Source: Nitrospirota bacterium (GTDB lineage: Bacteria > Nitrospirota > UBA9217). From it: a stretch of 29,692 nt of DNA. The notes below the pieces were generated by a model, which did not search any database, was not told where the DNA came from, and was given only the letters and a program-made list of their open reading frames with translations. The first letter of the stretch is position 1; each line of letters begins with the position of its first letter. The translations under genes and the position numbers were made by a program. The stretch is taken from assembly GCA_041484215.1 (NCBI GenBank), contig JBGPHF010000001.1, positions 1-29,692 of the forward strand, given 5' to 3'. This document shows positions 1,900 to 28,646 of this stretch, piece after piece.

Positions 1900-3977
<2,078 letters not shown>

Positions 3978-4007: not shown

Positions 4008-4850
4008 ATGACCGCAATGATCGACAAGTCATCCGGAAACGGTGACAGGAAGTATCGCCGGAAGGCCGTGAGAAAAACCGGACCTGCTCAGATATTGCTC
4101 GTTGACGATACGGAGCTCCTCTACCAATATGCCAAGACCCTTTCCGAATCCTATCGAGTCGTCACGGCCCAGACCGGCCGCGTTGCGATCGAGCGGGTAA
4201 AACGGCGCGGCGACATTGACCTCGCGGTCATCGAATACCGGCTGCCCGATATGTCCGGCATCGAGGTCATGAAAGAGATCAAGGACATTGAGCCCTCCGT
4301 TCTCGTTATCATCGCTACGGCATACGGCGACGAGGACGTGGCGGTCGAGGCATTCAGGAGCGGCGCCCGCGATTACCTCAAGAAGCCCTTCAGCATATCC
4401 GAGCTTTCCACGAAGATCGACTTCTATCTCGCCCTCAGGCAAGCGGATAAACAGCGCAGAAAGAACATCCTTCCCGGGTCCGGGACGCCGTCGCAGTCAG
4501 GAACGCCTTCCACCGTCACCCTCAGCCGGTATCATAAGATCCAGCAGGCAGTTCGTTTTATCAATGACAACTACCGTACCGATATCCGCCTCGACGTCGT
4601 TGCCGGGGAGGCCGGCATGTCCCCCGCCCACCTTTCCAGAATATTCAAGAAGGTAATGGGCTTGTCCTATCAGGATTATCTCAATAACCGAAGAATCACG
4701 AAGGCCAAGAACCTTCTCCTCACCAGCGCCCAGAACGTAGCCGAAATCGCCGTCTCCGTGGGTTTTTCCGATCCGACCGGTTTCGGCAGAATTTTCAAGA
4801 AGCTGACCGGCCATACGCCTTCCGCCTTCAGAAGCCTGCCCCTGAAGTAA
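4008..4850 (+). CDS. Response regulator: receiver domain plus AraC/XylS-family HTH, with an atypical receiver (Glu76 at the phospho-acceptor position)
   Basis: Receiver motifs ILLVDD, DLAVIEYRLPDMSG, IIATAYG and DYLKKPF. AraC domain runs IQQAVRFINDNY...LDVVAGEAGMSPAHLSRIFKK...AKNLL...VAEIAVSVGFSDPTGFGRIFKKLTGHTPSAFR. SD-like GGAAGG lies upstream. Confidence 0.93.
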   Translation: MTAMIDKSSGNGDRKYRRKAVRKTGPAQILLVDDTELLYQYAKTLSESYRVVTAQTGRVAIERVKRRGDIDLAVIEYRLPDMSGIEVMKEIKDIEPSVLVIIATAYGDEDVAVEAFRSGARDYLKKPFSISELSTKIDFYLALRQADKQRRKNILPGSGTPSQSGTPSTVTLSRYHKIQQAVRFINDNYRTDIRLDVVAGEAGMSPAHLSRIFKKVMGLSYQDYLNNRRITKAKNLLLTSAQNVAEIAVSVGFSDPTGFGRIFKKLTGHTPSAFRSLPLK

Positions 4851-4869
4851 TTTTATTTGCCAAAAAAAG

Positions 4870-4905
4870 CATAAGAAGCCGTGAGCATGTCATAAAAAGC
4901 CGAGA
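4870..4905 (+). promoter_or_regulatory. Direct repeat with 21-bp period, candidate AraC-family operator
   Basis: CATAAGAAGCCGTGA at 4870 and CATAAAAAGCCGAGA at 4891 are 13/15 identical, with starts 21 bp apart. The second copy overlaps a -35-like GAGACA. Confidence 0.55.
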
Positions 4906-4931
4906 CAGAAACGATTAATATCTGGTAGAGT
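4902..4931 (+). promoter_or_regulatory. Putative activator-dependent sigma70-type promoter for the adhesin operon
   Basis: -35-like GAGACA (4902-4907), 18-bp spacer, -10-like TAGAGT (4926-4931) with an extended TG at 4923-4924. Confidence 0.4.
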
Positions 4932-5074
4932 TATCCTAGAGCGGACTTTCCGGTCACAGCAGCGCAGGCAGCGGATCCTGCGAGGAAAGGATGTGAAGGG
5001 GTTATCGGGGTTCGTATCCAGTTCTCCAGGTCTACTGCCAATTCCGCCACGGCAGTGATTTCTCAATACGGACT

Positions 5075-8000
5075 ATGTCACAGCCTATGAGAGAACAGGA
5101 AAAGCTTCGGATGTGTTCGAACCACAAGGCTTGGCGGGAAAGTTTCCTTACGGCCCTGGCGGCACGCGCCAGGTTCGGTTTCCCGCTGCTGCTCCTTTTC
5201 GCCCTGGCGCTGGGAAACGCCCATTCCGCGCAGGCGGCGACGGTTCTGTGCTCCCAGTTCAGCGAAGGCGGAGTCCCGGGTATCGTTGACGGTTTTGATC
5301 CCGCTACTCTCGCAATTATTCAATCCTCTTCCACGTTCGGGATCGACATGAACTGCACGGTAAAGAATTTTCCGCAGTCCATGGGTGGGTTTCCGATCAC
5401 GAATATCAACTTCAATTTCCCCGGGCAGCAATCGTTTTACATAGTTTTCGACAATGTTTATTACCCGGGCAACATGTCGTGTAACGACCCGACGCAATCA
5501 ACCTTCTGGATCTACTGGGCGCCCGGCGGGTTTAACAACATCAGTTCGAAATGCCAGTCATTTATGGTGCCGGTGGACGCAGTTCTGAAGCAGGACCCCC
5601 CGGCACAGAGCACGGCCGCCATCGGTGTGCCCTTTACCTATACGATCACGGCGCCGCTCCTGGGCCAACTGGATTCAACCGGCACCTTCCAGTATGTCGC
5701 CAACTTTGACACCAACGATATAGCAAATGTCGTTATCACCGACGATCTCACCACGAATCCGGGTGTGGCTCTGAGCTATGTGACGAACACCGCCTACCTG
5801 GTGAGTTCGAGCGGTATCAGAACACCGATGGGCACGCTGACGCTGGGCGCAAGCAGTACTTGGCTGACTAATCACCCGGGTATTTTGTCGGATACTACGA
5901 AGCATCTTGTCTTCTCGTATGAAAATAATTCGTCTCTCGCTTCGATCCCGGCCGGAAATCACATTGAGATCGACCTCACGGTCATCCTCGATAACAATCC
6001 GACGACCGTGAACGTGGCCGGGACGCAGTTCAGCAACACCTCCAATGCGTGGTTCAACAAAACGATCAATTCGACTCCCCTAGTCGATCTCCAGGCGTGG
6101 CCCGGCACCACGCCGGTGATGACTATTATCGAGCCCAATCTCCAGGTCACCAAGACGAGCACGGCGACGAACCTGAATGTGGGGACCAGGGCGCCCTATA
6201 CCATCAACGTCCAAAACACCGGCAGCAGCGATGCCTGGAACGCGACGATCACCGACAATATCCCCGCCGGCATGTGCGCTTTCGACCCCACGTCCACGGT
6301 CACCGCGCGGATCTTTGCGGCTGACGGCACCACCCTGGTCTCTAATCTGGTCAACGGCGCCGATTTCTCCGTCACTTGGAACGGCGGTACCGCGTCCGCG
6401 TGCCAGCTCAGTCTGGCCATGCTTACGGCCGCGGCCAAGATCGGGCCCACCCAACGCCTGATCATCAACTACCAGGCCATGCTCGACGTCGGTATCTCAT
6501 CCGGAACATTTACCAACGTTGCCGGCGCCACCCAGTGGTTCAGTGCCGCCAATCCCCCCTATACCGGCCGCCGGGAATACGACCGGATACTCACCAACGG
6601 CACACCGGGGGTAGCGGATTTCCAAGACGCCTACACCGTCACGGCTGCAGTTGCCGGTTATTTCTTTTTAAAGTCGGTCCAGGACCTTACCACCGGGGTC
6701 TCTACGTATTCAGCCGCCACGCCCCTTACGGCCTTTTCAGGTGACCGCGTGCGCTACACGCTGCAACTCCAGAACTTTAACATCCCCGAGCTCGACACCA
6801 TCGTTATCACGGACGACCTGGGCGCCCAGAACGCATCGGCGGTCTTCGTCTCGGGGACGCTCTCGCTCGCCGGCAGCAACCTCCCCGCGGGCAGCACACT
6901 AACCATCAATCCCACGGGCGGCACGAACGGAGCAGGCACCGTTACGATCAGCGGCCTGACGCTGAAGTCCGGAGACCAGTACCAAGTCCAGTTCGATGTC
7001 ACGCTGGCTTCGCCGCTCGCGAACGGCACAATCGTCACCAACCAGGCGAACATCACCGGCACCAATGTGTCCGGCGCCGTGTCCGGCGTCAGTGATGACC
7101 CGCACATCAACGGCCCGGCCCTGCTCGGTACAACCGGTGATGAAACCCCCATCACGATCCAGGCGCCCGGGGCGCTCTCGAAGACGTCGCCTATCCCGGC
7201 CACCGCGACAATCGGTCAGCAGTTCAGCTATCTCATCACGGTGCCCGCGACCCCGGTCAGCATGCCTTTGTACGATGTGCAGATACAAGACACGCTGCCC
7301 CCCAACGTGAGTTTTGTGAGCGCACAGATGCAATCCGGCGGCGCCTGGAACCTGACCGGCACCGGCACTGCCCCCCTGATTATCAAGGATCCCACTACCG
7401 GCGGCATCGATATTCCCGCGAACGGCCAGGCGGTTGTCCGGGTGACGGTGGCCTTGCAGAACACTATCACGAACATCAGCGGCGTGTCGTTTACCAACAG
7501 CGCAACGTACACCTACGACAAGAGCAACGGCGCCAGTTCCACGCAAGGGACCGGCGCCGCGGGTACGGCCAACATGAACATTATCGAACCGCACCTGACC
7601 GCCGCGAAGACGGTGAGCTATGCCTCGCCGTCGGGCCAGGCGATAACCGTTCCTGCCAGGGTAGGCGACATTCTCCAATATAGGGTCACTGTCACGAATA
7701 ACGGAAACTCCGAAGCGTTTGATGCCGATGTCATCGACACATTGCCGTCGAACCTACTGCTCAACGGCACTCCTGCGGCGCAGATCAACGGCGTTTCGGT
7801 CGCGGGTTTTATACCGACGCCGGCCACTCTGCCCGGCGGAACCGTGGCGTGGGGCAGCCAGTATAACAACGACGACAGCCTCGACATCCCCGTTGGGCAG
7901 TCGCTGGTGCTGACTTTTCAAGCGCAAGTGCTGTCGGTGGACGGCTCATCGATCAGCAACACAGCCTGGGCGGCTTGGACCTCGCTTGACGGCGGAATCT

Positions 8001-11000
8001 CCGGAGAACGCACCGGCAGCGGTTGCCCCGCGGTCACGTCACCGAACAATTATTGCACTTCTCCGGCCGCTGCCATCCCGGTTCCCACGGTCGATCCGAC
8101 CAGCTTCGCCAAATCGGTGGTCTCTGACACCTGGACTACTGCACCAAGCACGGGCACGGACTCGACCTTGCGCGTCGGCGACACCGTCGTTTATAGCCTC
8201 GCCCTGACACTGCGCGAAGGGGTGACTCAGAATGTGGTGGTCACCGATCAGCTGCCTGCTAACCTTGCCTTCGACAGCATGGTGAGCATCGCCCCTGCTT
8301 CGGGCGGCAACTTCACCTATGCCGTGTTTACCCAACCAACGGCCGGCGACACCGGCACACTGACCTGGAATCTGGGAAACATCACCAATGCCGTTGACAA
8401 CAACGCTGCCAACAACACCATTGTCATCGAATACCGCGTACGGGTAATGAATACGGTTGCGCAGACACCCACCGTGCGGGCGTTGCTAAATAACGCCACG
8501 CTCTACTACTCCATTAACAGTGTTGCAGCGACGAAGACCGCCGGCGCGACGATCAATCTTTGGCAGCCGATGCTAAGCGTGTCCAAGAGCGCGGCTCCCG
8601 GAGGCGGCGGCACCGTCATCAGCGCCGGCGAACTCATTACGTATACCGTCAACATCACGAACAACGGCTCGGCGCCCGCCTATAACACCGTGCTCACCGA
8701 TACGCTGCCGGTCGGTCTGCGTCAGGCCGGGGTGACCACCACCTCCATCACGCTGGTCAATGCGGGTACGGTACTGCCTGCGCTGAATGCCCCGTATTTT
8801 TCGTATAACAACGCGACGGGTGTTGCGACCTGGAACTTCGACACCGGTGTCGCCGGCGCCTACGCCGTCCCGCCAGGCGAGACCCTGCGCGTGGTCTATC
8901 AGGTCACGGCCGACGGCACGCTCGGTGCGGGCACGACACTGAACAATCAGGCGCTGGTCCAGCATTACTACTCGTTGGACAGTCAAGACCCGAACGGCGG
9001 GTATCGAAAGGATTACTTCGCGACCAGTCCTTCCGTCGCCCAGTTGACCTCCGTGTCGCCGATGGCGCTGTCGAAGAATGCCCTGGTGACGACGGCTGCG
9101 ATCGGCCAGCCCTTCACCTATCAAATCATGATTCCGTCTTCGCCGCAGCCTACCGCGTTGTACGACGTGCACGTCACGGATAATCTGAGCCTGGCAACGA
9201 CCGGCGTGTCCCTGAGTTTTGTGAGCGTCAATGCGCATCTCGTATCGAACACGCAGTCCTGGGCGACGTTGAGCAATTCGGGGACTGCCGTCAATCTCAA
9301 CCTGTCGGACCCGGCCAACGGCTTGGATATCCCTGCCAACGATCAACTCGTGGTCAGCATCACCGTTGTGCTTACCAACGACACCGTCAACAACACGATA
9401 GGAAAGGTGTTCCAGAACACCGCGAACTACACGTTCGACAGCATCAATAACGACACGACTTCGGTGAAGAACGGCGCTCCGGGGACCAGCGGTTCCATCA
9501 CCATCGTCGGCCCTGTTCTGATCATGCAGAAGAGCGGCCCGGGCACGATGCATGTGGGGCTGCTCGGCGCTTTTACGTTAAACGTGCAGAATACCGGCGG
9601 CAGCACCGCCTGGAACACGACCCTCACGGATATCCTTCCGAACGTGACGAGTCCCCCGACGGGCGGCATGTGCGGTTCCGCGCCGACCAGCATTACGGCG
9701 AGGATTTACCAGGCCGATGGGGTCACCCCTGTCTCCGCTCAACTGGTGAGCGGCACCGACTTCTCCGTTAGCTTCGCGGGTGCGCCTACCTGTACCTTGA
9801 CGCTTGCCATGAAGTCGTCCGCAGCGGTAATTCCGGCGACGGATCGCCTGATCGTTACCTATAGCGTCTCGCTAGACCCCAACACGGCCAGCGGTATGGC
9901 GCTGACGAACATTGCCGGCGCGACCCAGTGGCTGAGCGCCGATCCCGCTGTCACCGCCTCGGGGAACGTGGCTACGTATCCCGGCCCGCTGACGAACGGT
10001 ACGCCGGGCGTATCGGATAATCAGGATGCCTTCACGGTGACCACCGAATCGCCGGTGCTGACTTTCACGAAGACCGTGTACGACGTGACAACCGGCCAGT
10101 CCGGCGCCAACGCCAAACCCGGTGACACGCTGAAGTACACCCTGACGATCCAGAACCTCAGTCCGGTAAATGCGACGAACTTCTCGTTGACGGACGAGTT
10201 GGACAAACTGAATACGACCGCCATGTTCGTGCCGGGTAGCCTGATTCTCCTCACCGTTCCCACGGGTGCGAATACCACACTGACCTCTGCGACCGGCGGG
10301 ACCAAGGGCACGGGGCTGGTGAGTATCAGAAACCTGAGCATCGATCCGCAGGGCGGCGCCAACGACAAACTGGTCATCGAGTTCCAAGCTGCCTTGACGC
10401 CGGTGATCACCAGCGGCGCCATCGTTCTGAATCAGGCGCAGACCGGCTCGTCCATACTGCAAACGCAGTTGAGCGACGATCCGTCCATCACCGGGACCGC
10501 CAATCCGACCCAGACGCTCATCGCGTCGGCGCCGGCATTCCGTGTGCTGAAGACGGTACAGGATATTACGTCCGGCGCCTCCACCGTCATGGCGGGCGAC
10601 ACCTTGCGCTACACCATCACGGTGAAGAACATCGGCACCGAGAACGCGGTAGGCGTGACATTGCGCGATCTGGTCCCGGCGTACACGACCTACGTGGCCA
10701 ACAGTACCAAATTGAACGGTGCGGCTGTGGCTGATTCCGGCGCCGGCGTCAGCGCGCTGCAAAACGGCATGTTGATAAACTCGCCCGCGAACCTGACAGC
10801 GGGAGCCATGCCCGCGAATGCGGGCGCGACGACGACCAATGTGGCCACGATCACGTTCAATGTACAGATTAGCCAGAACGTGGTCAACGGCACGATTATC
10901 TCCAACCAGGGCTTTGTGGACGGTTCCGGCACAAATGGACCTTTCCCCGAACTACCTTCCGACAACCCGGCGACTCCCATACCGAACGATCCGACGTCGG

Positions 11001-13753: not shown

Positions 13754-13756
13754 TAA

Positions 13757-13798
13757 GAAACACCTTTGACTTGTTTCATGGTTGCCGGTTTATCCGGC
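13757..13798 (+). other. Two short inverted repeats in the adhesin/OmpA-barrel intergenic region
   Basis: GAAACA(13757-62)/TGTTTC(13772-77) and GCCGG(13784-88)-TTTAT-CCGGC(13794-98). No U-tract follows, so this is not a canonical terminator. Confidence 0.3.
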
Positions 13799-13816
13799 TA
13801 AGGTAATGCAAAGCAA

Positions 13817-18952: not shown

Positions 18953-18972
18953 ATGCGTAACAGGAGGCAGCC

Positions 18973-19488
18973 ATGTTCACCATTTTAAAAGGGTTCATTC
19001 TTTCCATTGCGATGCCGATGCTGATGCTGAGCTTCCCTGCTTATGCCGAGGAAGTATCCAAGGAACAGATCAAGGGCTTGGATGAACAGGTCCAGGAAAT
19101 CAAGACCGATGCTCTGGGCATTGCGGCGGAACTGAATCAGCTTGAAGAGAAGCTGCTGTATCCGTCCAATACGCAGGTCGCGGTCTTCGTATCACTGGTC
19201 CGGGGAGAAACCTTCCGTCTCGACTCGGTCGAGATCCGGTTGGACGGCAAGCCGGTTGCCCATCACCTGTACTCCTTCAAGGAACTCGAAGCCTTGCAGA
19301 AGGGCGGGGTGCAGCGCATCTATGTCGGCAATATCAAATCCGGCGAGCATGAGCTCCAGGTCTTTGTCGCGGGGAAAACCGGGGGAACCGCCGATTTCAA
19401 AAAATCGGAGAGCTTCAAGATCACTAAGGATGTGAGCCCCAAGATCGTGGAAATATCACTGGCCGCACAAAGCATTACCCTTAAATGA
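18973..19488 (+). CDS. Small secreted/periplasmic protein (coiled coil plus beta-rich domain), function unknown
   Basis: Strong SD AGGAGG at 18962-18967. Signal peptide ends ...SFPAYA. A heptad helix (IKGLDEQVQEIKTDALGIAAELNQLEEKLLYP) is followed by beta-strands (VAVFVSL, LDSVEIRLDG, HELQVFV). No HTH. Confidence 0.75.
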   Translation: MFTILKGFILSIAMPMLMLSFPAYAEEVSKEQIKGLDEQVQEIKTDALGIAAELNQLEEKLLYPSNTQVAVFVSLVRGETFRLDSVEIRLDGKPVAHHLYSFKELEALQKGGVQRIYVGNIKSGEHELQVFVAGKTGGTADFKKSESFKITKDVSPKIVEISLAAQSITLK

Positions 19489-19498
19489 CGGGGAGACC

Positions 19499-21388
19499 AT
19501 GAACAGGTTATTTGTTCTATTGACAATTCTGATATTCTCAGCACCGGCGCGCGTGGCCCCGTCCGCTCCGAAAGAACTGAAGGACCTTTATTTCGGAGAG
19601 GCCCTGTATCACGCATTTCAAGGGGACTGGTTCGATGCCATCGCCAGGCTCGACACTGAGCTTGCGCAGCACCATGGGATCGATGAGCCCGAACGCGACA
19701 CCCTTCATTACTATATCAACCAGGCAGAGTTCGACGTGGGTGATTTCGAATTGGCATACCGGATGCACCAGCGCGCCGGGCGCGCCATCAAGGCGGTGAT
19801 CGAGGGCAATGTCGAGGAGCCGGTGCGCAATGAGGCCATTTTCCGTCTGGCCCGGATCTACTTCCAGAAAGACCAGCCGCAGAACGCCTTGCAGGCCGTG
19901 GAGCGCATCAAAGGCTCCGTTCCCGACAACATTCGCGATGATCTGGCTTTCCTGCGGGCGCAAATTTATATGGCCAACGGCCGCTTCGATGATGCGGCCC
20001 GCATCCTTGCGGAGCTCCAAGGCGCGAAGGGCCTGGAAGGTTTTACCACGTACAACCTCGGGATCGCGCTGCTCAAGAGCGGGAAGGTGCGGGAAGGGCT
20101 CCTCTCGATCGACCGGACGGGCCGGATCGAGAGCGATAATCCAGCAACGCTGGCGATCAAGGATAAATCGAACCTCGTCCTCGGCGACAGGCTGATGAGT
20201 GAAAAGAATTTCGAGGGAGCCAAGGAGGTCCTCGACCGGGTGCGCCTGAACGGCCCGTTTTCCAACCGCGCTCTGCTTGGTTCGGGTTGGGCCGACGCCT
20301 CCCGGGAACAGTTCGAAAATGCCCTGGTGCCATGGAGCATCCTGGCCGAGCGCGAAGTCACTGATCCGGCGGTGCAGGAAGGCCTGCTTGCCGTCCCCTA
20401 TGCCTACGAGAAACTCGGCGTATACAGCCAGGCGGCGCTGAAGTACGGCAGGGCATTGGAGGCGTTCAGCAAGGAGCTTGATAAGCTCGGCGCTTCGATC
20501 ACCAGTATCCGCGAAGGCAAATTCTTGAAGGCCCTGGTGCGGGAAGAGCTGAAACAGGACCCCAACTGGGTCGTCAAACTGCGCGAGCTGCCGGAAACGC
20601 CCGAGACATTCTACCTGCTCGACCTGATGGCCTCCCATGATTTCCAGGAATCGCTGAAAAACTATCTCGACCTCGAAGAGCTGCGCAAAAAATTTGATGT
20701 CTGGTCGGAAGACCTGGCCGCCTTCGAGGATATCATCGCGCAGCGCCGGACGTATTACCAGCCGCTCTTGCCCGCGATCGACCGGGAATTCAGGCGGCTG
20801 GATTCGCAGATGCGGTTTCGATTGGAGCAGCGAAGCCGGATCGAGCAACGGCTGCAGGCCATGCTGGTGGCGCCGAGGCCGGACTACCTGGTGACCGCGC
20901 AGGAGCGGATTGTCGGGGAGCGCATTGCGCGGCTGGAGAAGGCCCTGACTACGCGGGGCGGCGCGGCTGCACGCGACGACATGAAAAGCCGCGTCAGACG
21001 TCTGCGGGGAGTGCTGGACTGGAAGATATATACGGAATATGACCAACGCCTTACGGAGGCGCACAAAGATCTTCGGGACCTGAATCACGTCATTGACGCG
21101 CTGCGCAAGCAGTACACCTCTTTTGTACGTACGCGCCAGGCGGCCACGCAAAGCTACCAGGGCTACGACAAGGTGATCCGCACCCAGCAGACCCGGATCA
21201 CGGCAGCCCGGGAAAAAGTGGACGAATTGATGGCCCGTCAGGGTCATATGCTCGAAGCCATGGCACAGAATGAACTCACCAAACGGCGCGATCGGCTCGA
21301 AGAGTTCCGGACCAAGGCGCGCTTCGCCATGGCGGACAGTTACGATCGCGCCATCAAGGCCCAACTCCGGAAGGGGGCCGACCAATGA
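19499..21388 (+). CDS. Secreted TPR plus coiled-coil protein, GltC-like
   Basis: Signal peptide, multiple TPRs (NEAIFRLARIYFQKDQPQNALQAVERI; ALLGSGWA...ALVPW; EGLLAVPYAYEKLG) and a long C-terminal coiled coil ending ARFAMADSYDRA. Position fits the Agl-Glt core order. The GltC assignment is an inference. Confidence 0.72.
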   Translation: MNRLFVLLTILIFSAPARVAPSAPKELKDLYFGEALYHAFQGDWFDAIARLDTELAQHHGIDEPERDTLHYYINQAEFDVGDFELAYRMHQRAGRAIKAVIEGNVEEPVRNEAIFRLARIYFQKDQPQNALQAVERIKGSVPDNIRDDLAFLRAQIYMANGRFDDAARILAELQGAKGLEGFTTYNLGIALLKSGKVREGLLSIDRTGRIESDNPATLAIKDKSNLVLGDRLMSEKNFEGAKEVLDRVRLNGPFSNRALLGSGWADASREQFENALVPWSILAEREVTDPAVQEGLLAVPYAYEKLGVYSQAALKYGRALEAFSKELDKLGASITSIREGKFLKALVREELKQDPNWVVKLRELPETPETFYLLDLMASHDFQESLKNYLDLEELRKKFDVWSEDLAAFEDIIAQRRTYYQPLLPAIDREFRRLDSQMRFRLEQRSRIEQRLQAMLVAPRPDYLVTAQERIVGERIARLEKALTTRGGAAARDDMKSRVRRLRGVLDWKIYTEYDQRLTEAHKDLRDLNHVIDALRKQYTSFVRTRQAATQSYQGYDKVIRTQQTRITAAREKVDELMARQGHMLEAMAQNELTKRRDRLEEFRTKARFAMADSYDRAIKAQLRKGADQ

Positions 21389-24300
21389 GGACAACGCGTT
21401 ATCTTCTCTGGGGATTGCTCACGCTGCCGCTCCTCCTCTTCGCCTGTCAGTCGGTCGGCGGCAAGGATACGATTGCTAAGTTGCATGCCAGGCACATGGA
21501 GATCAAGGAAGAGAAGATCGAAGGCGGGCTTGAGCAAGCCATGGAGGGTTACCAGCGCTTTCTGGAAGAAACGACGGACTCCGCCCTGAAGCCGGAGGCC
21601 ATCCGCCGCCTGGCGGACCTGAAGATAGAGAGGGAATACGGTCAAATCACCGGCGGAGGCAAGCCGTCGGGCCAGGCAGCGTCGAAAATAGCGGCTGCGG
21701 CAAAGCCCTCTTCGGCGCCGTCCACCCTGGCGTCCGCACCGACGTCGTCCCGCGCGGAGTCCGCTGCTGATTTCGAGAAACGAACGACCATCGGCGGACG
21801 GGTCACACGCACGCCGACGGAGGGAGTAACCTTACCAGGCGCCGAGGATTTGGAACGGGCAGGAGCGCGCGAGGCCGTCGAACTCTACAAAAAACTGTTA
21901 CACGATTATCCGGCGTACGAGCACAACGACCAGGTGCTGTATCAGCTGTCCCGTGCTTACGAAGAGCTGGGCGAGATCGAGGAGGCCATGCAGGTCATGA
22001 ACCGGATGGTGCTGGAGTATCCGCACTCACGTTATATGGATGAAGTGCAGTTCCGGCGGGCCGAATACTTCTTCACCCGCAGGCATTACCTGGATGCCGA
22101 GGAAGCCTACGGCAGCATCGTGACCATGGGCGTCACTTCCTCCTATTATCAGCTCGCCCTGTACAAGCTGGGCTGGACCTTTTACAAGCAGGAGCTCTAT
22201 GACGAGGCTGTGGACCGATTCATTGCCCTGCTGGATAACAAGGTGTCGGCGGGCTACGACTTTGCTCAGACCGCGGATGAGGCGGAACGCAAACGCATGG
22301 ACGACACCTTCCGCGTCATCAGTCTGAGCTTTTCAAACCTCGGCGGCGCCAACTCCGTGGTCGAGTACTTCACCCGCCACGGCAAGCGCGGTTACGAGGA
22401 CAGCGTCTACAGCAACCTCGGCGAATTCTACTTCGAAAAACGCCGTTACGCCGACGCCGCCGCGGCCTACAACGCCTTTGTCAGCCGCAACCCGTTACAA
22501 AAAGTTTCGCCGCAATTCGCCATGCGGGTGATCGAGATCCATCTGGCCGGGGGGTTCCCCAGCCTGGTCATTGACGCGAAAAAGCAATTTGCCGAAAAGT
22601 ACGGACTCCAAGCCGAATACTGGCGGCATTTCGAACCGGGCAGCCGTCCGGAAGTTCTGGCCTGGCTCAAAACGAACCTCACGGATCTGGCCAAGCATTA
22701 TCACGCGCTTTACCAGAGCCCGCAGCAGATCAAGGAAAAAGCGACGAACTTCGTGGAAGCGCGGCGTTGGTATCGGGAATTTCTCACTTCCTTTCCGATG
22801 GATTCCGAGTCGCCGGCCATTAATTATTTGTTAGCGGACCTGTTTATGGAAAACGGCTCCTTCGATCTGGCGGCGGCGGAATATGAGAAGACCGCCTATG
22901 AATATCCGCGCCACGAAAAGTCCTCGCAGGCCGGCTACGCGGCAGTTTACGCTTATCGCCAACAGCTGACGGGAGTTGGAGCCGAGGCGAAAGATACGGT
23001 GAAGCGGGAGGTCGTACGCAGCTCGCTGAAGTTCGCCGACACCTATCCGGAGCATGAGAAGGCAGCGATCGTTCTGGGGGCTGCCGCGGATGATCTGTAC
23101 GGCATGCGGGATTATGAACAGGCGCTGGCTACCGCGCAAAAACTCGACAAGGTTTTCCCCGGCGCCGATAAGTCCGTCAAGCGAGGGGCCTGGGATGTCA
23201 TCGCCCATTCCACCTTCGAACTCCATCGCTACAGCGAGGCCGAAGCCGCGTACGTAAAGCTCCTGGGCTTGGTCCCCGAAGGCGACAAGGAACGCAGCGC
23301 CCTGGTGGACAACCTCGCGGTCTCGATTTATAAGCAGGGTGAAGAGGCGAACGCCCGTACGGATTACCGAGTGGCGGCCGACCATTTTCTTCGCGTAGGG
23401 GTCCTCGCGCCGGACTCCAAAATAAGGCCGAACGCCGAATACGACGCCGCCGCCGCCCTGATCCAGCTCAAGGACTGGAAAAAGGCGGCCGCCGTGCTGG
23501 CCGGGTTCCGCGACAAATTCCCCGGTCATGAGTTGCAGCCCGAGGTGACCAAGAAGGTCGCTTACGTCTATAAAGAGGATGGCCAGCTGGCGCAGGCAGC
23601 AAATGAGTATGAACGCATAGAACGGGAATCCCGGGATGATGAAGTACGGCGGGAGGCCCTGCTGATTGCGGCGGATCTCTATGAACAGGTGAGCAGCATC
23701 GACCGCGCGATCGAGGCTTACCGTCGCTACGTGGGGTATTTCCCGCACCCGGTGGAACCCAACCTGGAAACGCGCAGCAAAATCGCGGAAGCGCTGAAGA
23801 AAAAAGGTCGGGATAACTATCTCGGGGAACTCAAGGAGATCGTGATCATTGATGCGTACGCAGGAGGCGAGCGTACGCCGCGGACCCGCTATCTTGCCGG
23901 CACGGCCGCGTTGGTCTTGGCCGAGTTGAGCTTCGACAAATTCGCCGGGGTCAAGCTGGTCGAGCCGTTCAAGGCCAACCTGGACAAAAAAAAGGACTTG
24001 ATGAAGATTGCGACCGAGCAGTTTAACCAACTCATCGACTATGAAGTCGGCGAGGTCACCGCTGCGGCGACCTTTTATCTGGCCGAGATCTATGCTCACT
24101 TCAGCAAGGACCTGAAGGAATCCGAACGCCCCGCGGGACTGAGCGCATTGGAACGGGAAGAGTACGAACTTGCCATCGAGGACCAGGCGTATCCCTTCGA
24201 AGAAAAGGCCATTTCGATGCATAAGAAGAATCTCGAGCTGATCTCCCTGGGTGTTTACAACGAGTGGGTCGACAAGAGTTTGCAGGAACTGGCCAAGTTC

Positions 24301-24531
24301 ATGCCCGCGCGTTACGATAAACCGGAGGAGGAGAGTCCCGTCATCGCTTCGTTGGATAGTTACAAGTTCGCCATCGAACGTCGGGAGCCGCCCGCGCCAC
24401 GGGCGCCCGAGGGGGCGGCGCGGACCGGAGAAACGAAGCAGGATGCGAAACCGGTAGGGGCCGAAGAAGCGGCGCCGGCAGCGGGCGACAGCGGCGATAA
24501 AGATGCCCCGCCTGATGCGGTGGTAAAATAG
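21385..24531 (+). CDS. Large TPR-rich lipoprotein, GltD/AgmU-like
   Basis: Lipobox LLFA-C21. Many TPRs (DQVLYQLSRAYEELGE, FRRAEYFFTRRHYLDAEEAY, LYKLGWTFYKQ). C-terminal AATFYLAEIY...YELAIEDQAYPFEEKAISMHKKN block. ATGA overlap with the upstream gene. Confidence 0.8.
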   Translation: MRTTRYLLWGLLTLPLLLFACQSVGGKDTIAKLHARHMEIKEEKIEGGLEQAMEGYQRFLEETTDSALKPEAIRRLADLKIEREYGQITGGGKPSGQAASKIAAAAKPSSAPSTLASAPTSSRAESAADFEKRTTIGGRVTRTPTEGVTLPGAEDLERAGAREAVELYKKLLHDYPAYEHNDQVLYQLSRAYEELGEIEEAMQVMNRMVLEYPHSRYMDEVQFRRAEYFFTRRHYLDAEEAYGSIVTMGVTSSYYQLALYKLGWTFYKQELYDEAVDRFIALLDNKVSAGYDFAQTADEAERKRMDDTFRVISLSFSNLGGANSVVEYFTRHGKRGYEDSVYSNLGEFYFEKRRYADAAAAYNAFVSRNPLQKVSPQFAMRVIEIHLAGGFPSLVIDAKKQFAEKYGLQAEYWRHFEPGSRPEVLAWLKTNLTDLAKHYHALYQSPQQIKEKATNFVEARRWYREFLTSFPMDSESPAINYLLADLFMENGSFDLAAAEYEKTAYEYPRHEKSSQAGYAAVYAYRQQLTGVGAEAKDTVKREVVRSSLKFADTYPEHEKAAIVLGAAADDLYGMRDYEQALATAQKLDKVFPGADKSVKRGAWDVIAHSTFELHRYSEAEAAYVKLLGLVPEGDKERSALVDNLAVSIYKQGEEANARTDYRVAADHFLRVGVLAPDSKIRPNAEYDAAAALIQLKDWKKAAAVLAGFRDKFPGHELQPEVTKKVAYVYKEDGQLAQAANEYERIERESRDDEVRREALLIAADLYEQVSSIDRAIEAYRRYVGYFPHPVEPNLETRSKIAEALKKKGRDNYLGELKEIVIIDAYAGGERTPRTRYLAGTAALVLAELSFDKFAGVKLVEPFKANLDKKKDLMKIATEQFNQLIDYEVGEVTAAATFYLAEIYAHFSKDLKESERPAGLSALEREEYELAIEDQAYPFEEKAISMHKKNLELISLGVYNEWVDKSLQELAKFMPARYDKPEEESPVIASLDSYKFAIERREPPAPRAPEGAARTGETKQDAKPVGAEEAAPAAGDSGDKDAPPDAVVK

Positions 24532-24561
24532 GGTTAGGTACACGAGAGAGGGAGCCGGGCG

Positions 24562-25239
24562 ATGCAGGTCAGGAATGCAGGGCTGGTATGGCGGTCGAAA
24601 GTCCGAAGGCGGGCCGGGTGGTTGGCCCTGATGATTGTGCTCGAGGTTTTTTCCGCATGCGCAACCGACGGCAAGGTCACGCCGCAGCCCGTTACAGCGC
24701 CGGGCTTATCCGTGTCGCGACCCGGGAACGGGCGACAAGGTTTTGTCATCCGGGAAAGCGCGAGCGTGGACGGTGAGACGCGCGGCGAATTCGAGCGCGC
24801 CGTCGCCATGATGAACGACGGAAAAAATGACAAGGCCATCGAACTTCTGGCAAAGGTGATCGAGCGTTCCCCGCGGGTCACGGCGCCGTATATAGATATT
24901 GCAAAGGCGTATATGCGGACCGGAAAGCCGGAGCCTGCCGAGCAGCACCTCAAAACAGCGCTGGAACTGGTTCCGAATCATCCGGTGGCCAGTAATGAGT
25001 ATGGGTTGCTGCTTCGCAAGGGAGGCCGCTTTAAGGAGGCCCGGGAAATCTATGAGAAGGCGCTCGCGAGTTTTCCCGATTATCTTCCGATCCATAGAAA
25101 TCTCGGCATCCTCTGTGATCTGTATCTCAATGACCCGGAATGCGCGCTCAAACAATTCGAGATATATAGCGAGGGGATGCCGGCGGACATGCAGGTCAAA
25201 ACCTGGATCGCCGAGTTGCGTGTGCGGCTCGGGCGTTAG
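24562..25239 (+). CDS. TPR lipoprotein, GltE/AglT-like
   Basis: Lipobox FSA-C33. Consecutive TPRs (ASNEYGLLLRKGGRFKEAREIYEKAL; HRNLGILCDLYLNDPECALKQFEIY) ending VKTWIAELRVR. Confidence 0.75.
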   Translation: MQVRNAGLVWRSKVRRRAGWLALMIVLEVFSACATDGKVTPQPVTAPGLSVSRPGNGRQGFVIRESASVDGETRGEFERAVAMMNDGKNDKAIELLAKVIERSPRVTAPYIDIAKAYMRTGKPEPAEQHLKTALELVPNHPVASNEYGLLLRKGGRFKEAREIYEKALASFPDYLPIHRNLGILCDLYLNDPECALKQFEIYSEGMPADMQVKTWIAELRVRLGR

Positions 25240-25258
25240 GTGAAAGGAAGGAAGGAAT

Positions 25259-25579
25259 ATGCATCGAAAAGTATTGCTTGGGTTGTGTTTGCTTCTGGCA
25301 CTGGCCGGCACGGCCACGGCCGAAACCAAAAAATCGACGACCAGAAAATCGACGACCAAGGAAACTTCGACCAAGGAACCGGCGGCCAAAGAACTTTCGG
25401 GCATGTCAATCGTCGGTAACGATGAAGCCCCGAAAGCCTTGTATATCGTGCCCTGGAAAAGTTCTGAACTCGGCGTGGAGACAGGTTTCAGCAGGATGTC
25501 GACGGAAAGCGCCGTGCCCGTGGACCGGGATGTGTTTATGCGGCAATTGAATTTTTTCGAGGTCAGCACCAAAAAATAA
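25259..25579 (+). CDS. Small secreted protein, GltF-like
   Basis: Signal peptide ...LALAGTATA, then the motif GMSIVGNDEAPKALYIVPW. It sits between the GltE-like and ExbB-like genes. The GltF assignment comes from position and motif recall. Confidence 0.68.
   Translation: MHRKVLLGLCLLLALAGTATAETKKSTTRKSTTKETSTKEPAAKELSGMSIVGNDEAPKALYIVPWKSSELGVETGFSRMSTESAVPVDRDVFMRQLNFFEVSTKK
25325..25399 (+). repeat. In-frame 5 x 15-bp tandem repeat (TKKST TRKST TKETS TKEPA AKELS)
   Basis: accaaaaaatcgacg / accagaaaatcgacg / accaaggaaacttcg / accaaggaaccggcg / gccaaagaactttcg. Confidence 0.85.
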
Positions 25580-25614
25580 CTTTGTCGTCTCGTTAAAAAA
25601 AAGGAGGAAAAAAG

Positions 25615-26313
25615 ATGTTACACGGAATGCTGAGGTTTTTTCAGGCAGGTGGGTTGTACATGTTCCCCATTCTCTTCACGCTTGCGATCGGGCTGGCCAT
25701 CGCGTTTGAACGCTGGGTCCAATTGAAACGGACCGCGGACACAAACCAAAAAGTATGGGACTTGCTGTATCCGGAGCTGGAAAAGGGAGATTTCGATAAG
25801 GCCCGGGAAATAGTCAACAATGACAAGTCCAGTATGGCGCAAATGCTGGGGATGGGACTGGCGCGCCAGGGGGCGGTCAAGCGGCGGGACGATATAGAAA
25901 TCGCCATGGAAGAGAGCATGATGGAAATCATCCCGCAATTGGAAAAGCGCACACCGTACCTGGCGCTGCTGTCGAATATCGCCACCCTGTTCGGACTGCT
26001 CGGCACCATCATGGGTCTTATCCAGGCCTTTGCCGCGGTTGCCACCGCGAGCCCCGCCGAGAAGGCCGCTCTGCTCGCGGCCAGCATTTCGGAGGCCATG
26101 AGCTGCACTGCCTTCGGTCTGATGACCGCCATCCCGCTTCTCCTGTTCCATGCCCGTCTGACAACAACCACGGGCCAGATCGTGAACAGCCTGGAGATGG
26201 CATCGGTAAAGGCGCTCAATTATATGTCAACGTTTACCAAGCGCCAGTTTGACACTGCAAGTTTGCCAAAAGCCAATTTGACAGGAGCTACCCATGTCGA
26301 GACGATTTCGTAA
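25615..26313 (+). CDS. MotA/TolQ/ExbB proton-channel protein (AglR-like)
   Basis: FFQAGGLYMFPIL...AIAFERW (TM1); IATLFGLLGTIMGLIQAF (TM2); ISEAMSCTAFGLMTAIP (TM3). Strong SD AGGAGG at 25602-25607. Confidence 0.92.
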   Translation: MLHGMLRFFQAGGLYMFPILFTLAIGLAIAFERWVQLKRTADTNQKVWDLLYPELEKGDFDKAREIVNNDKSSMAQMLGMGLARQGAVKRRDDIEIAMEESMMEIIPQLEKRTPYLALLSNIATLFGLLGTIMGLIQAFAAVATASPAEKAALLAASISEAMSCTAFGLMTAIPLLLFHARLTTTTGQIVNSLEMASVKALNYMSTFTKRQFDTASLPKANLTGATHVETIS

Positions 26314-26797
26314 CAGAAGAAAACAAGAAGAGGTCGCTACGGATATCATGGAAGTGTTGAACCTGACACCGATGATGGATATCCTTACCGTTCTGGTGGT
26401 CTTTTTGCTCATTACCGCCGTTTTTATGAGTATTACGATCCAGGAATTGAGCGTCCCGACCAATGCCAGCGGAACGGCCGGTCAAGCGAATTTCGCCATC
26501 GAGGTGATCGTTCGCAAGACGGGGCTGCAGATCGGCAACGGGAGGTCCGTGGAGGCCGCGATCCCGAAAAAAGGCGATGACTACGATCTTGAGCTGCTGT
26601 CCAAAATGCTCGTCCGCCTGAAGTCCCAATATCCGGATAAGGAAGACGCGACGGTTTTGATGGAGCCGGATATCAAGTACGACTATCTGATCGAGATCAT
26701 GGACGCAGTTCGTGAGGCCGACGTGCGGACGGAAGGGAGCAAAGAGATCACCAAAATAGTTCTCTTTCCCAAAATATCGCTGGGAGACGCGCCATGA
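26294..26797 (+). CDS. ExbD/TolR-family protein (AglQ/AglS-like), copy 1
   Basis: LNLTPMMD29ILTVLVVFLL transmembrane motif with the conserved Asp. Periplasmic domain includes IKYDYLIEIMDAVR. Overlaps the upstream gene by 20 nt. Confidence 0.9.
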   Translation: MSRRFRNRRKQEEVATDIMEVLNLTPMMDILTVLVVFLLITAVFMSITIQELSVPTNASGTAGQANFAIEVIVRKTGLQIGNGRSVEAAIPKKGDDYDLELLSKMLVRLKSQYPDKEDATVLMEPDIKYDYLIEIMDAVREADVRTEGSKEITKIVLFPKISLGDAP

Positions 26798-27294
26798 GAG
26801 ACAGCAGACGTATGAAGCGGATGGAGCGCACCAACAGGAAAAGTAACGTCAAAGGTCTCGGCATAAACTTGATACCGATGATGGATGTTCTTTGCGTTCT
26901 GGTGTTCTTTCTGCTGTATCACTCGTTCAACACTACTCTGCCGGATGCGCAGATCACGCTGCCCGCTTCCGTTGTCGAGACACACCCACGGGAGACCGTG
27001 ACGATCGTGGTCACCCCCGACGTAGTAATGGTTCAGGGCGAACCCGTGGTCAACACCTCCACACTGTTCGACGACAGCAGCGGGATCGTGTATGAAGTAC
27101 GGTCGCGACTGGAACAGATTGAACGCAATATTATCGAGACAGGCACCAAGACGTTTGCCGAAGGCAAGGAAATCACTCTCCTTGCCGATAAAACGATTCC
27201 GTTCAAAGCGCTTAAAAAAATAATGTCGACCTGCACGGCTTCCGGATACGGAAAGATTTCCCTCGCCGTTATCCAGAAGGAGGCAAAAAAATAG
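26794..27294 (+). CDS. ExbD/TolR-family protein (AglQ/AglS-like), copy 2
   Basis: INLIPMMD31VLCVLVFFLL, then LLADKTIPFKALKKIMSTCTASGYGKISLAV. ATGA overlap with copy 1. Confidence 0.9.
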   Translation: MRDSRRMKRMERTNRKSNVKGLGINLIPMMDVLCVLVFFLLYHSFNTTLPDAQITLPASVVETHPRETVTIVVTPDVVMVQGEPVVNTSTLFDDSSGIVYEVRSRLEQIERNIIETGTKTFAEGKEITLLADKTIPFKALKKIMSTCTASGYGKISLAVIQKEAKK

Positions 27295-28646
27295 TGGCGA
27301 AATGCTCGAATACATCGATATTAGATGAGGAATTGGCGCAACTGAGCGCGCAGATCGAGCAAACCCGGAAAAAACAGGGTGTGCTGGAAGGCGAGTTGCG
27401 CGCCGTAGACGCGGAGTTGGAAACCTTTTCCGCCGACAGGCAGCGGTTCGATGCCTTGCGGGACGTCTACAACGCGCTCGACAAGCTGGGCAAACTGAAA
27501 GCGGGTGAACTCTTTTGGGAAGATGTCCAAAATGCCCCCGGACACCTGGAGCGGGTGAGGAGCCGGGTTGCCCAATTTGAGGGAGAAATAAGCAAGGTCC
27601 TGCAAAAACAGGCATCCCTGCGGAGGCAGATCAACGGATGCCTGGATGAACTGGACTTATTCAACGAAGAAGTACGCGATGTGTACGCCTGTGAAGAACG
27701 GCGCCAGGAAGAGTATGCCGTAGAACGGGAGATTTCGTCCTATCCGTATCAATTGACCATACGGGCTGAGAGCGAACAACGCTTCCGCAAGGCGCTGCGT
27801 ACCGCTTTGTTGGTGTGTTTCCTTTTCAGCCTTGTTATACTCCTTTGGAAATTGCCGCCGTCGACACGCCCGGCCGTGGCCGTGGTCCCGGAACGGCTGG
27901 TCTCCATGCTGAAAAAGGAGCCGCCCAAGCCTGAGCCGCCACGCCCGAAAGAAGAAAAACCCGATCAGGAAAAGAAGCCGGAGAAAGCGAAGGAAGACCG
28001 GCCCAAACCAACCACCGTAGAAAAAGAGGCCGCGCGTCAAAAAGCAGAGAGCTCGGGGGTCCTGGCCTTCAAGGAGGCTTTTAAGGATCTCATGGCCGAA
28101 ACTCCCGCTGCGCAGCTCGGCTCCGAGGCGCGTCTGAATAACCAGTCGGCGACAGGCCAGGCCCGGTCCAGCCGGTCGCTCATCGCCATGCAGTCAGCGG
28201 GCGGCTCCGGCGGCAGTGTTGCCAATGCCGCGGTCAGCCGCAATGTCGGGGGCAGCGGCAGCGGCATCGGCGGTGTCGGTTTTACAAGGGTACAAAGTGC
28301 GGTTGCGGGACTGACGGAGGGGGCGAGACCGCTCAGTTCCGGACCCGGGCCGTCCCGAACCGACGAAGAAATTCAGATCGTCTTCGATAAATACAAGGCG
28401 ACGCTCTACCGGATCTACAATACCGAACTGCGCAAGAACCCGACCCTGCGCGGCAAGATCATACTGCGCATTACCATCGAATCGGGCGGCGAGGTCTCCG
28501 CATGTACGGTGCAGTCGAGCGAGCTTGCCTCGCCGACGCTGGTGGAGCAGATCGTGGAGCGCGTCAAGAAGTTCAACTTCGGACCGAAGGAGAAGGTTTC
28601 CAAGACGACGATTCTGTACCCGATTGATTTTCTGCCCGGAGGTTAG
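27294..28646 (+). CDS. TonB-like energy transducer, GltG/PglI type (AgmX/PglI C-terminal domain), with an N-terminal coiled coil
   Basis: GTG start overlaps the upstream TAG, with SD AGGAGG at 27278. Architecture: ~155-aa heptad-rich N-terminus, single TM (27795-27848), Pro/Lys/Glu spacer (PPKPEPPRPKEEKPDQEKKPEK), Gly-rich stretch, and TonB-C-like domain RTDEEIQIVFD...YNTELRKNPTLRGKIILRITIESGGEV...YPIDF. Confidence 0.86.
   Translation: MAKCSNTSILDEELAQLSAQIEQTRKKQGVLEGELRAVDAELETFSADRQRFDALRDVYNALDKLGKLKAGELFWEDVQNAPGHLERVRSRVAQFEGEISKVLQKQASLRRQINGCLDELDLFNEEVRDVYACEERRQEEYAVEREISSYPYQLTIRAESEQRFRKALRTALLVCFLFSLVILLWKLPPSTRPAVAVVPERLVSMLKKEPPKPEPPRPKEEKPDQEKKPEKAKEDRPKPTTVEKEAARQKAESSGVLAFKEAFKDLMAETPAAQLGSEARLNNQSATGQARSSRSLIAMQSAGGSGGSVANAAVSRNVGGSGSGIGGVGFTRVQSAVAGLTEGARPLSSGPGPSRTDEEIQIVFDKYKATLYRIYNTELRKNPTLRGKIILRITIESGGEVSACTVQSSELASPTLVEQIVERVKKFNFGPKEKVSKTTILYPIDFLPGG

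Follow-up and report, generated by a model that had tools for sequence, protein, structure and literature searches.

On what does the Agl-Glt core motor act in bacteria that do not glide? What the Glt core does outside Myxococcus has been an open question since 2011, one that a 2026 review of gliding does not take up. The question is raised here by a 29,692-nucleotide stretch of DNA from a Nitrospirota bacterium (contig JBGPHF010000001.1 of assembly GCA_041484215.1, positions 1 to 29,692 of the forward strand), which is called the window below in its whole length and comes from a metagenome-assembled genome (MAG) that is 63% complete. Named homologues likewise point to a host in Nitrospirota. 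Twelve open reading frames (ORFs), all on the + strand, occupy positions 4008-28646. A first-pass annotation, made from the letters alone, had described them as co-oriented and tightly packed, and the ORF list bears this out: from the adhesin gene onward the intergenic gaps run from -4 to 64 nucleotides (a 4-nucleotide overlap at the minimum), an operon-like arrangement, and the gap between the regulator and adhesin genes is 225 nucleotides. Nine of the genes include the published Agl-Glt core complex, and this core is joined in many phyla to a giant DUF11/CLIPPER adhesin and an OmpA-barrel protein, a conserved trio that suggests what the core motor acts on in non-gliding bacteria. The twelve genes, with lengths in amino acids (aa), are as follows.

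4008..4850, + strand: regulator with a response-regulator receiver and an AraC-type helix-turn-helix domain, 280 aa (Pfam Response_reg, HTH_18)
5075..13753, + strand: giant fibrillar adhesin, 2892 aa (DUF11/CLIPPER, RrgB_K2N and SdrD_B domains; Sec signal peptide)
13817..18952, + strand: OmpA-barrel giant, 1711 aa (signal peptide; Pfam OmpA three times; barrel class by AlphaFold2 (AF2) and Foldseek)
18973..19488, + strand: p171, a secreted protein of 171 aa, first gene of the nine-gene core (no family)
19499..21388, + strand: periplasmic tetratricopeptide repeat (TPR) protein at the GltC position, 629 aa (Pfam TPR)
21385..24531, + strand: TPR lipoprotein, GltD homologue, 1048 aa (lipobox; hidden Markov model (HMM) and hhalign matches)
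24562..25239, + strand: small TPR lipoprotein, GltE homologue, 225 aa (lipobox; HMM and hhalign matches)
25259..25579, + strand: p106, a small secreted protein of 106 aa (signal peptide; no family)
25615..26313, + strand: ExbB/TolQ-family proton channel of AglR type, 232 aa (Pfam MotA_ExbB)
26294..26797, + strand: ExbD paralog 1 at the AglQ position, 167 aa (Pfam ExbD; transmembrane Asp29)
26794..27294, + strand: ExbD paralog 2 at the AglS position, 166 aa (Pfam ExbD; transmembrane Asp31)
27294..28646, + strand: TonB-like transducer of GltG type, 450 aa (NF033768, GltG model, HMM and hhalign matches)

The first-pass annotation had supposed that the adhesin and barrel genes would be linked to the core in other genomes too, and a neighbourhood survey confirmed this on either side of the core. 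In a sample of 201 Nitrospirota genomes, 44 from the window's family and 157 from elsewhere in the phylum, the TonB-like gene was present in 16 of the 44 and in none of the 157, a patchy distribution which indicates that the system is accessory. Full-length orthologues of the barrel protein were found in 13 genomes of the family, and in all 12 Nitrospirota genomes that have both genes (12/12) the barrel and TonB-like genes share a strand and are separated by about 8.5 kb. A wider scan with an alignment of GltD-like proteins gave 80 loci from Nitrospirota, Thermodesulfobacteriota (Geobacter, Geomonas diazotrophica), Pseudomonadota (Woeseiaceae, Steroidobacteraceae, Thiohalomonadaceae, Lysobacter niastensis, Burkholderiales), Acidobacteriota and Myxococcota MAGs, and across these roughly 80 loci the nine core genes keep one invariant order. 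Thirty-nine loci were assessable, with 3 kb or more of sequence flanking the core on each side. A giant DUF11/CLIPPER protein adjoins the core in 38 of these 39, the loci coming from five or more phyla. In 31, tblastn matched the adhesin and/or the barrel protein; 5 others have, immediately behind the TonB-like gene, an ORF longer than 1450 aa that is open at its 3' end and carries DUF11 behind a divergent N-terminal region of ~1500 aa; and in 2 a giant gene is upstream and divergent, leaving a single locus (L099) with no giant gene. Wherever the flank reaches far enough, a giant with three OmpA domains and a barrel follows the adhesin; two Gammaproteobacteria contigs, for example, have the order core, adhesin, barrel. 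On a tree of the GltD-like proteins, the loci with the adhesin-barrel pair upstream of the core form one clade with 100% support (Nitrospirota plus Thermodesulfobacteriota, including the Geobacter and Geomonas loci together with the window), and the pair is downstream elsewhere. The position of the pair needs one change on this tree, indicating that the linkage has survived rearrangement and repeated transfer between phyla.

The identity of the nine genes was examined against a Myxococcaceae genome (G201) in which bona fide GltG and GltC score 960 bits (cut-off 650) and 967 bits (cut-off 450), respectively. Profiles from 49-74 orthologues of each window protein were compared with 419 ORFs of the G1, G2 and Agl-type loci of this genome, followed by hhalign and cross-controls. 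The 1048-aa TPR protein had GltD as its sole HMM match among the 419 ORFs (149 bits, E 3.6e-45), with hhalign values of 99.8-99.9% over 787-873 columns as against 77% or less for other TPR proteins. The 225-aa TPR protein matched GltE by HMM (69.5 bits, E 6e-21) and by hhalign (96.9%, controls <5%), the latter over the TPR part only (122 columns). For the 629-aa TPR protein, GltC was the best among the controls in hhalign at a weak 72.5% (E 3e-5, 215 columns); this protein gave no match to the NCBIfam GltC model, and its family HMM found none among the 419 ORFs. The TonB-like protein carries a C-terminal domain of the AgmX/PglI kind (NF033768, 66 bits versus a cut-off of 40), reaches E 8e-8 with the GltG model, and matched GltG of the reference genome with its family HMM (23.6 bits, E 5e-7) and in hhalign (95.4%). 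Pairwise BLASTP of the TonB-like protein with genuine GltG gave no match, so that the relation is visible to profiles only. The expectation that the TPR and TonB-like proteins belong to Glt families thus came through this comparison for GltD, GltE and GltG; GltC is weak, and GltF is matched by neither small protein (hhalign 3% for p171, whose family HMM also has no match among the 419 ORFs).

The proton motor is of the AglRQS type, as the first-pass annotation had proposed. The best match of the cluster ExbB in the reference genome is a 246-aa gene (172 bits), followed by ExbD genes of 161 and 194 aa, and these are the sizes of AglR, AglQ and AglS of M. xanthus. A reverse search from the AglR-type protein of the reference genome retrieved the cluster ExbB in three complete relatives at 132-137 bits, with other TolQ/ExbB paralogs at 47 or less, and the cluster ExbB is accordingly the reciprocal best hit of AglR. 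In both Agl-type clusters of Myxococcaceae the ExbD1 profile favours the first ExbD (the AglQ position), the ExbD2 profile gives 94.8 bits to the second (194 aa, the AglS position), and both paralogs keep the proton-accepting transmembrane Asp. The TonB-like protein consists of a cytoplasmic coiled coil of ~165 aa, one transmembrane helix, a Pro/Lys/Glu-rich spacer, a Ser/Gly linker and the C-terminal domain; it has no FHA domain, and across 49 family members the transmembrane helix shows no conserved His. The coiled coil and an R-F-R motif before the transmembrane helix (window 27294-27790) are conserved in the 49 aligned members, and two loci (L016/L018) have a shorter form of 349 aa that lacks most of the coiled coil.

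The two small secreted proteins belong to the same unit. Residues 46-106 of p106 are conserved at 46-86% identity in nearly all loci. p171 has a signal for secretion and stands at the same position in the surveyed loci at 45-77% identity; its AF2 model, with a pLDDT (predicted local distance difference test) of 87, consists of a long helix and a transthyretin-like beta-sandwich, and matches only generic transthyretin/Ig-like sandwiches. Searches of p171, p106 and the 292-aa lipoprotein gene downstream of the cluster (p292) against NCBIfam at E of 10 or less returned nothing useful.

These results bear directly on the phylogenomic work of Luciano et al. 2011 (PMC3169522), in which a core named Group B was defined as aglR, aglQ, aglS, gltC, gltD, gltE and gltG plus one extra gene absent from Myxococcales, and was found in Geobacter, Gamma- and Betaproteobacteria and Fibrobacter. 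Table S3 of that paper assigns Gura_3070-3077 of Geobacter uraniireducens as GltG, AglS, AglQ, AglR, an unlisted gene, GltE, GltD and GltC. The same genes stand in the same order in the window, and the Gura_3070-3077 products of 484, 166, 166, 211, [unlisted], 240, 1108 and 629 aa compare with 450, 166, 167, 232, 106, 225, 1048 and 629 aa here. Given this shared order and size, combined with the Glt and Agl profile matches, the published core complex is contained in the run of nine genes that begins with p171 and ends with the TonB-like gene. The genes lie in one locus with an extra small gene, as in the published definition: p106, which sits at the position of the unlisted Gura_3074 and of GM21_0441, is that extra gene, and p171 adds another conserved member to the core. 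The core as such is therefore not undescribed. The 2011 paper nevertheless has no p171, giant adhesin or OmpA-barrel gene, leaves the function open and does not list Nitrospirota among the hosts. The core itself is already known; for its link to a giant adhesin and a dedicated barrel we found no paper in a search that left most subscription journals outside.

Several other assignments were considered for the core and set aside. The complete Myxococcus-type gliding set is not present, since GltA/B/H/K, CglB, GltF, GltI and GltJ (the Group A genes) are missing; the surface genes and GltI/GltJ had been called unrecognisable in the window, and the profile searches agree, the CglB model having no match in this 63%-complete genome and the GltJ model matching only through the shared C-terminal domain (35.7 bits versus a cut-off of 450). 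The NF033759 model, tried as a candidate, is TraA and irrelevant. Tol-Pal identity was rejected because the cluster contains no TolB or Pal; bona fide TolB (379-409 bits) is found at other loci, beside other TolQ-like genes, in the relatives G087, G042 and G200. A TonB-ExbBD uptake system was rejected as well, for there is no conserved His, TonB_C scores 19.7 against the Pfam cut-off of 24.6, and no Plug or TonB_dep_Rec domain is found. As to variation among the loci, in an Acidobacteriota clade (L050:14072-16726; L052, L055, L063, L068, L081) divergence puts the motor genes lying between p106 and the TonB-like gene beyond the reach of tblastn with the window ExbB/ExbD, and two ExbD genes are still present by Pfam. 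On a 2.35-Mb contig of a close relative (L002, ERZ25039462 contig_8104) the ExbB, ExbD2, 629-aa and 1048-aa genes are split into short ORFs, which looks like long-read frameshift errors rather than pseudogenes.

The candidate for the outer-membrane end of the system in the window is the OmpA-barrel giant. After its signal peptide come three OmpA_C peptidoglycan-binding domains at residues ~57-520, and the ~1200 residues that follow have no Pfam or NCBIfam family match and gave zero matches in a PDB sequence search. Residues 512-1711 were modelled with AF2 from 25 homologues, at low confidence (pLDDT 53.6; predicted TM-score 0.35). The model is almost wholly beta, beginning with two better-predicted sandwich domains, and every significant Foldseek match was to a large outer-membrane barrel (LptD, Deinococcus SlpA, TonB-dependent transporters, MtrB) at E 1e-6 to 1e-4 with low TM-scores. 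This supports the assignment of the C-terminal part as a predicted large outer-membrane barrel, at class level only; the giant barrel of the first-pass annotation stands to that extent, and with a pLDDT of 53.6 nothing finer can be kept. The barrel is not a disguised Myxococcus platform protein, as hhalign with GltA, GltB, GltH and each ORF in the G1/G2 loci of Myxococcaceae stayed below 2%. The protein has no Plug or TonB_dep_Rec domain, and no autotransporter, ShlB/POTRA or intimin-type barrel domain was matched in Pfam or NCBIfam even at E of 10 or less. It is accordingly no member of type V secretion as judged by its barrel domain, and a functional analogy with that pathway is conceivable. 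A likeness to SprA is unsupported, SprA appearing at Foldseek rank 22 with a TM-score of 0.07-0.11. Full-length homologues with 62-66% identity occur in Gammaproteobacteria, including the cultured Sulfurifustis variabilis. A second, more distant family of ~2000-aa OmpA-plus-barrel proteins (28-35% identity over residues ~750-1710) is widespread in Nitrospirota (G042:C9:269136-271910 (L107:13963-19920), G075, G115, G127, G173 and others); its gene context is different, and neither core nor DUF11 giant was seen in L107/L108.

The adhesin gene upstream encodes a Sec signal peptide, a Cys-rich N-terminal region, about 14 Ig-like repeats of DUF11/CLIPPER isopeptide type, SdrD_B-like domains and a conserved charged C-terminal module. 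Family models mark 9-11 DUF11/CLIPPER units (Pfam DUF11, 217.7 bits in 9 stretches; TIGR01451, 11 stretches), six RrgB_K2N isopeptide-type domains (TIGR04226, 6 stretches) and SdrD_B domains, and isopeptide bonds are predicted. Isopeptide CLIPPER stalks are typical of surface fibrillar adhesins, and known examples from Gram-negative bacteria carry an OmpA-like anchor at the C-terminus (PMC12617251). The protein agrees with this class in its signal peptide, its tandem DUF11 and isopeptide-type domains and its envelope anchor, the OmpA anchor being provided in trans in the window and in cis in one Nitrospirota genus (g7). Conservation along the adhesin is uneven: between phyla, identity is 52-72% in the C-terminal third, with 62% over residues 2600-2800 even for a distant paralog, and drops to 18-26% in the N-terminal 1600 residues. 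A conserved C-terminus combined with a variable N-terminus is consistent with a docking role for the former. A further tie between the two giants comes from genus g7, in which four genomes have an open frame of 4,291-4,655 aa around the barrel protein, and in one of them (G087) a single 4,549-aa ORF is adhesin plus barrel protein in frame. At the junction a Ser/Ala-rich linker takes the place of the signal peptide of the barrel protein, indicating that the C-terminus of the adhesin and the OmpA domains are in the same compartment.

We consider it probable, with some reserve, that the eleven structural genes specify a single system spanning the envelope, whose barrel would anchor the adhesin or let it pass and whose motor would gate or load the barrel-adhesin complex. 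In the inner membrane, a 5:2 proton motor of AglR/AglQ/AglS type (ExbB plus two ExbD) would engage the GltG-type TonB-like transducer, whose long periplasmic arm would reach a scaffold of the GltD-, GltE- and GltC-like TPR proteins together with p171 and p106. At the outer-membrane end, the OmpA-barrel giant would stand in place of the GltA/B/H/K-CglB platform, with its three N-terminal OmpA domains stapling it to peptidoglycan and its C-terminal part forming a very large barrel. The Sec-exported adhesin would be fixed through its conserved C-terminal module to the periplasmic end of the barrel protein, the one with the OmpA domains, and its variable N-terminal stalk would be passed outward, most simply through the barrel. 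Motor work on the barrel-adhesin complex might then gate the barrel, so that the fibre is threaded or exposed, or load and unload an anchored fibre, by analogy with the Agl-Glt force that unmasks CglB at focal adhesions. The physical contacts, the topology of the adhesin and the action of the motor are what we infer in this model. A bolder proposal, which we find doubtful though worth stating, is that the ancestral job of the Agl-Glt core may have been to power a new outer-membrane export or display pathway, with a giant isopeptide adhesin threaded through a peptidoglycan-stapled mega-barrel and the GltG-type transducer gating or pulling by proton-motive force, and that myxobacterial gliding may have come later by a swap of the outer-membrane module.

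Several observations weigh against one coupled system. Paralogous adhesin plus OmpA-barrel pairs, with 37-45% identity and one OmpA domain, occur in G069 (one contig, 98% complete), G050 and G193, and these three genomes have no GltD-like or TonB-like gene. Conversely, at least two genomes, G123 and G119, have the nine-gene core with unrelated neighbours on both sides, and G147 has no barrel gene directly upstream of the core. The coupling of pair and core is frequent, not obligatory. That each is found without the other means that the adhesin is presumably deployable without the motor and that the motor can have other targets, and this separability speaks against a strict need for the motor in the export of every such adhesin. 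The barrel model is itself of low confidence, its long strands, about 28-32 between residue ~1066 and the C-terminus, being uncertain in number; the adhesin is taken to be surface-exposed because of its domain type; and the fused form needs an unusual topology, with the stalk outside, the OmpA domains in the periplasm and the barrel in the outer membrane.

Given this separability, the whole block could be two independent modules that travel together on a mobile island, namely a self-sufficient adhesin-barrel display pair of a two-partner or autotransporter-like kind and a Glt-type motor with some other target, without physical coupling between them. The genomes with one module only, and the transfer of the whole block between phyla, favour such an arrangement. 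However, hitch-hiking alone would hardly keep the modules adjacent in 38 of 39 loci from at least 5 phyla and on either side of the core; the gaps of 11-64 nucleotides are operon-like; and no other outer-membrane component of the core was seen in any locus examined. We therefore regard independent modules as unlikely.

Alternatively, the cluster might serve envelope integrity in a Tol-Pal-like manner. The barrel giant would then be a staple between outer membrane and peptidoglycan like SlpA or OmpM, the motor and the CpoB/YbgF-like TPR proteins would remodel this tether, and the DUF11 protein would be a structural fibre of the periplasm or outer membrane rather than an adhesin. Such a role would accommodate the up to seven YbgF/CpoB-type TPR units of the GltD-like protein (116.7 bits), the presence of SlpA among the best fold matches, the three peptidoglycan-binding domains and the fusion, which puts the C-terminus of the fibre in the periplasm. 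By contrast, it does not fit easily with occurrence in 16/44 genomes of the family and 0/157 elsewhere in the phylum sample, with a canonical TolB locus elsewhere in relatives, with a hypervariable N-terminus as expected of a ligand-binding tip, or with isopeptide CLIPPER stalks as a hallmark of surface fibrillar adhesins (PMC12617251), and we judge it to be a rather improbable account of the locus. That the motor moves the adhesin along the cell body, like SprB of Bacteroidota or the focal adhesions of Myxococcus, is highly improbable despite a motor and periplasmic scaffold homologous to the Agl-Glt gliding machinery, because all Group A genes are absent, a coiled coil stands in the transducer where GltG has the FHA domain by which it is coupled to GltI, three peptidoglycan-binding OmpA domains would fix the outer-membrane part to the sacculus, and the core alone was argued to give no motility by Luciano et al. 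(PMC3169522).

A single motor-to-adhesin system, as favoured here, can be set beside several characterised machines. One is Agl-Glt/CglB of M. xanthus (PMC9946355, PMC11761067), with which the window shares a homologous motor, transducer and GltD/E(/C) scaffold, GltD and GltE being lipoproteins in both, and a common logic leading from an inner-membrane motor through a periplasmic scaffold to an outer-membrane platform and a surface adhesin. By contrast, the 1711-aa OmpA-barrel protein and the 2892-aa CLIPPER fibre of the window are unrelated to GltA/B/H/K and the vWA lipoprotein CglB, GltF, GltI, GltJ and the FHA domain are lacking, and the outer-membrane part of the window system is peptidoglycan-anchored. 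In Fibrobacter succinogenes, FSU_2396 (OmpA), 2397/2398 (TPR) and 2400..2403 (ExbB, ExbD, ExbD, TonB) are up-regulated on cellulose, the OmpA and TPR proteins of this cluster occur together with an adhesin-like fibro-slime protein in a surface complex, and the motor was read as a cellodextrin importer (PMC6851124). Compared by gene order only, an OmpA-family gene directly upstream of a TPR plus ExbB-ExbD-ExbD-TonB set is common to both clusters, and FSU_2396-2403 corresponds by order and size to Fisuc_1892-1897 of Luciano et al.; no DUF11 giant is reported beside it, however. By analogy, this cluster may be taken as a suggestive precedent for a link between motor and adhesin.

More distant comparisons concern the adhesin and the energetics. 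SiiAB-SiiE of the Salmonella pathogenicity island SPI4 (bioRxiv 10.1101/641415) likewise combines a stator-like unit driven by proton-motive force, with a peptidoglycan-binding component, and a giant repetitive Ig-like adhesin; SiiE, however, leaves by an ABC/TolC-type type I secretion system with a C-terminal signal, whereas the window adhesin has a Sec signal and no ABC transporter, and both the motor family (MotAB/ExbBD-like SiiAB) and the scaffold differ. The CLIPPER adhesin B9T28_05395 of Acinetobacter silvestris (PMC12617251) has a tandem CLIPPER stalk, a variable N-terminus and an OmpA-type anchor at the C-terminal end, but the anchor protein of the window also has a giant barrel and the pair sits in a Glt-type motor operon. 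GldLM-SprA-SprB of the type IX secretion system is similar in outline, with its motor driven by proton-motive force, very large outer-membrane barrel and giant mobile adhesin; there is no homology, though, the window lacks the type IX C-terminal domain, and the motor is of another family.

A conserved partnership with a giant adhesin and barrel gives the core motor a concrete candidate substrate, and suggests a route from an adhesin-handling machine to a focal-adhesion gliding machine. Such a system may explain particle and mineral attachment in lineages that abound in sediment and groundwater, among them Nitrospirota, Woeseiaceae, Thiohalomonadaceae and Steroidobacteraceae, and cultured carriers (Geobacter uraniireducens, Geomonas diazotrophica, Lysobacter niastensis and Sulfurifustis variabilis) make the idea tractable.

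The first of the twelve genes and the surroundings of the cluster gave some further observations. The regulator occupies the same position in the Nitrospirota relatives G087 (77% identity) and G042 (74% identity) and has weak partial matches only in other phyla, so by sequence it appears to be a lineage-specific add-on to the cluster. Three tandem receiver-AraC paralogs lie upstream of the adhesin gene in G042 (L013:5015-7305), compared with one in the window. Promoter and terminator consensus scans at both operon ends found nothing. Downstream, the gene for the 292-aa lipoprotein p292 (window 28788-29666) follows the TonB-like gene; it belongs to no family, has no counterpart in any of ~90 related loci and is probably outside the system. 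An NAD-dependent DNA ligase gene (ligA, window 1923-3977) lies just upstream of the cluster, and ligA is also directly upstream of p171 in two Thiohalomonadaceae MAG loci (L040:5194-7200; L053:5263-7270), at 46-47% identity; it does not adjoin the cluster in the Nitrospirota relative G087, and its adjacency may reflect chance or a recurrent insertion neighbourhood. Finally, G+C content is uneven within the one operon: it is ~0.60 from the adhesin through the barrel and TPR genes (6-25 kb) and 0.53-0.54 in the motor genes; the upstream flank has 0.48-0.55.

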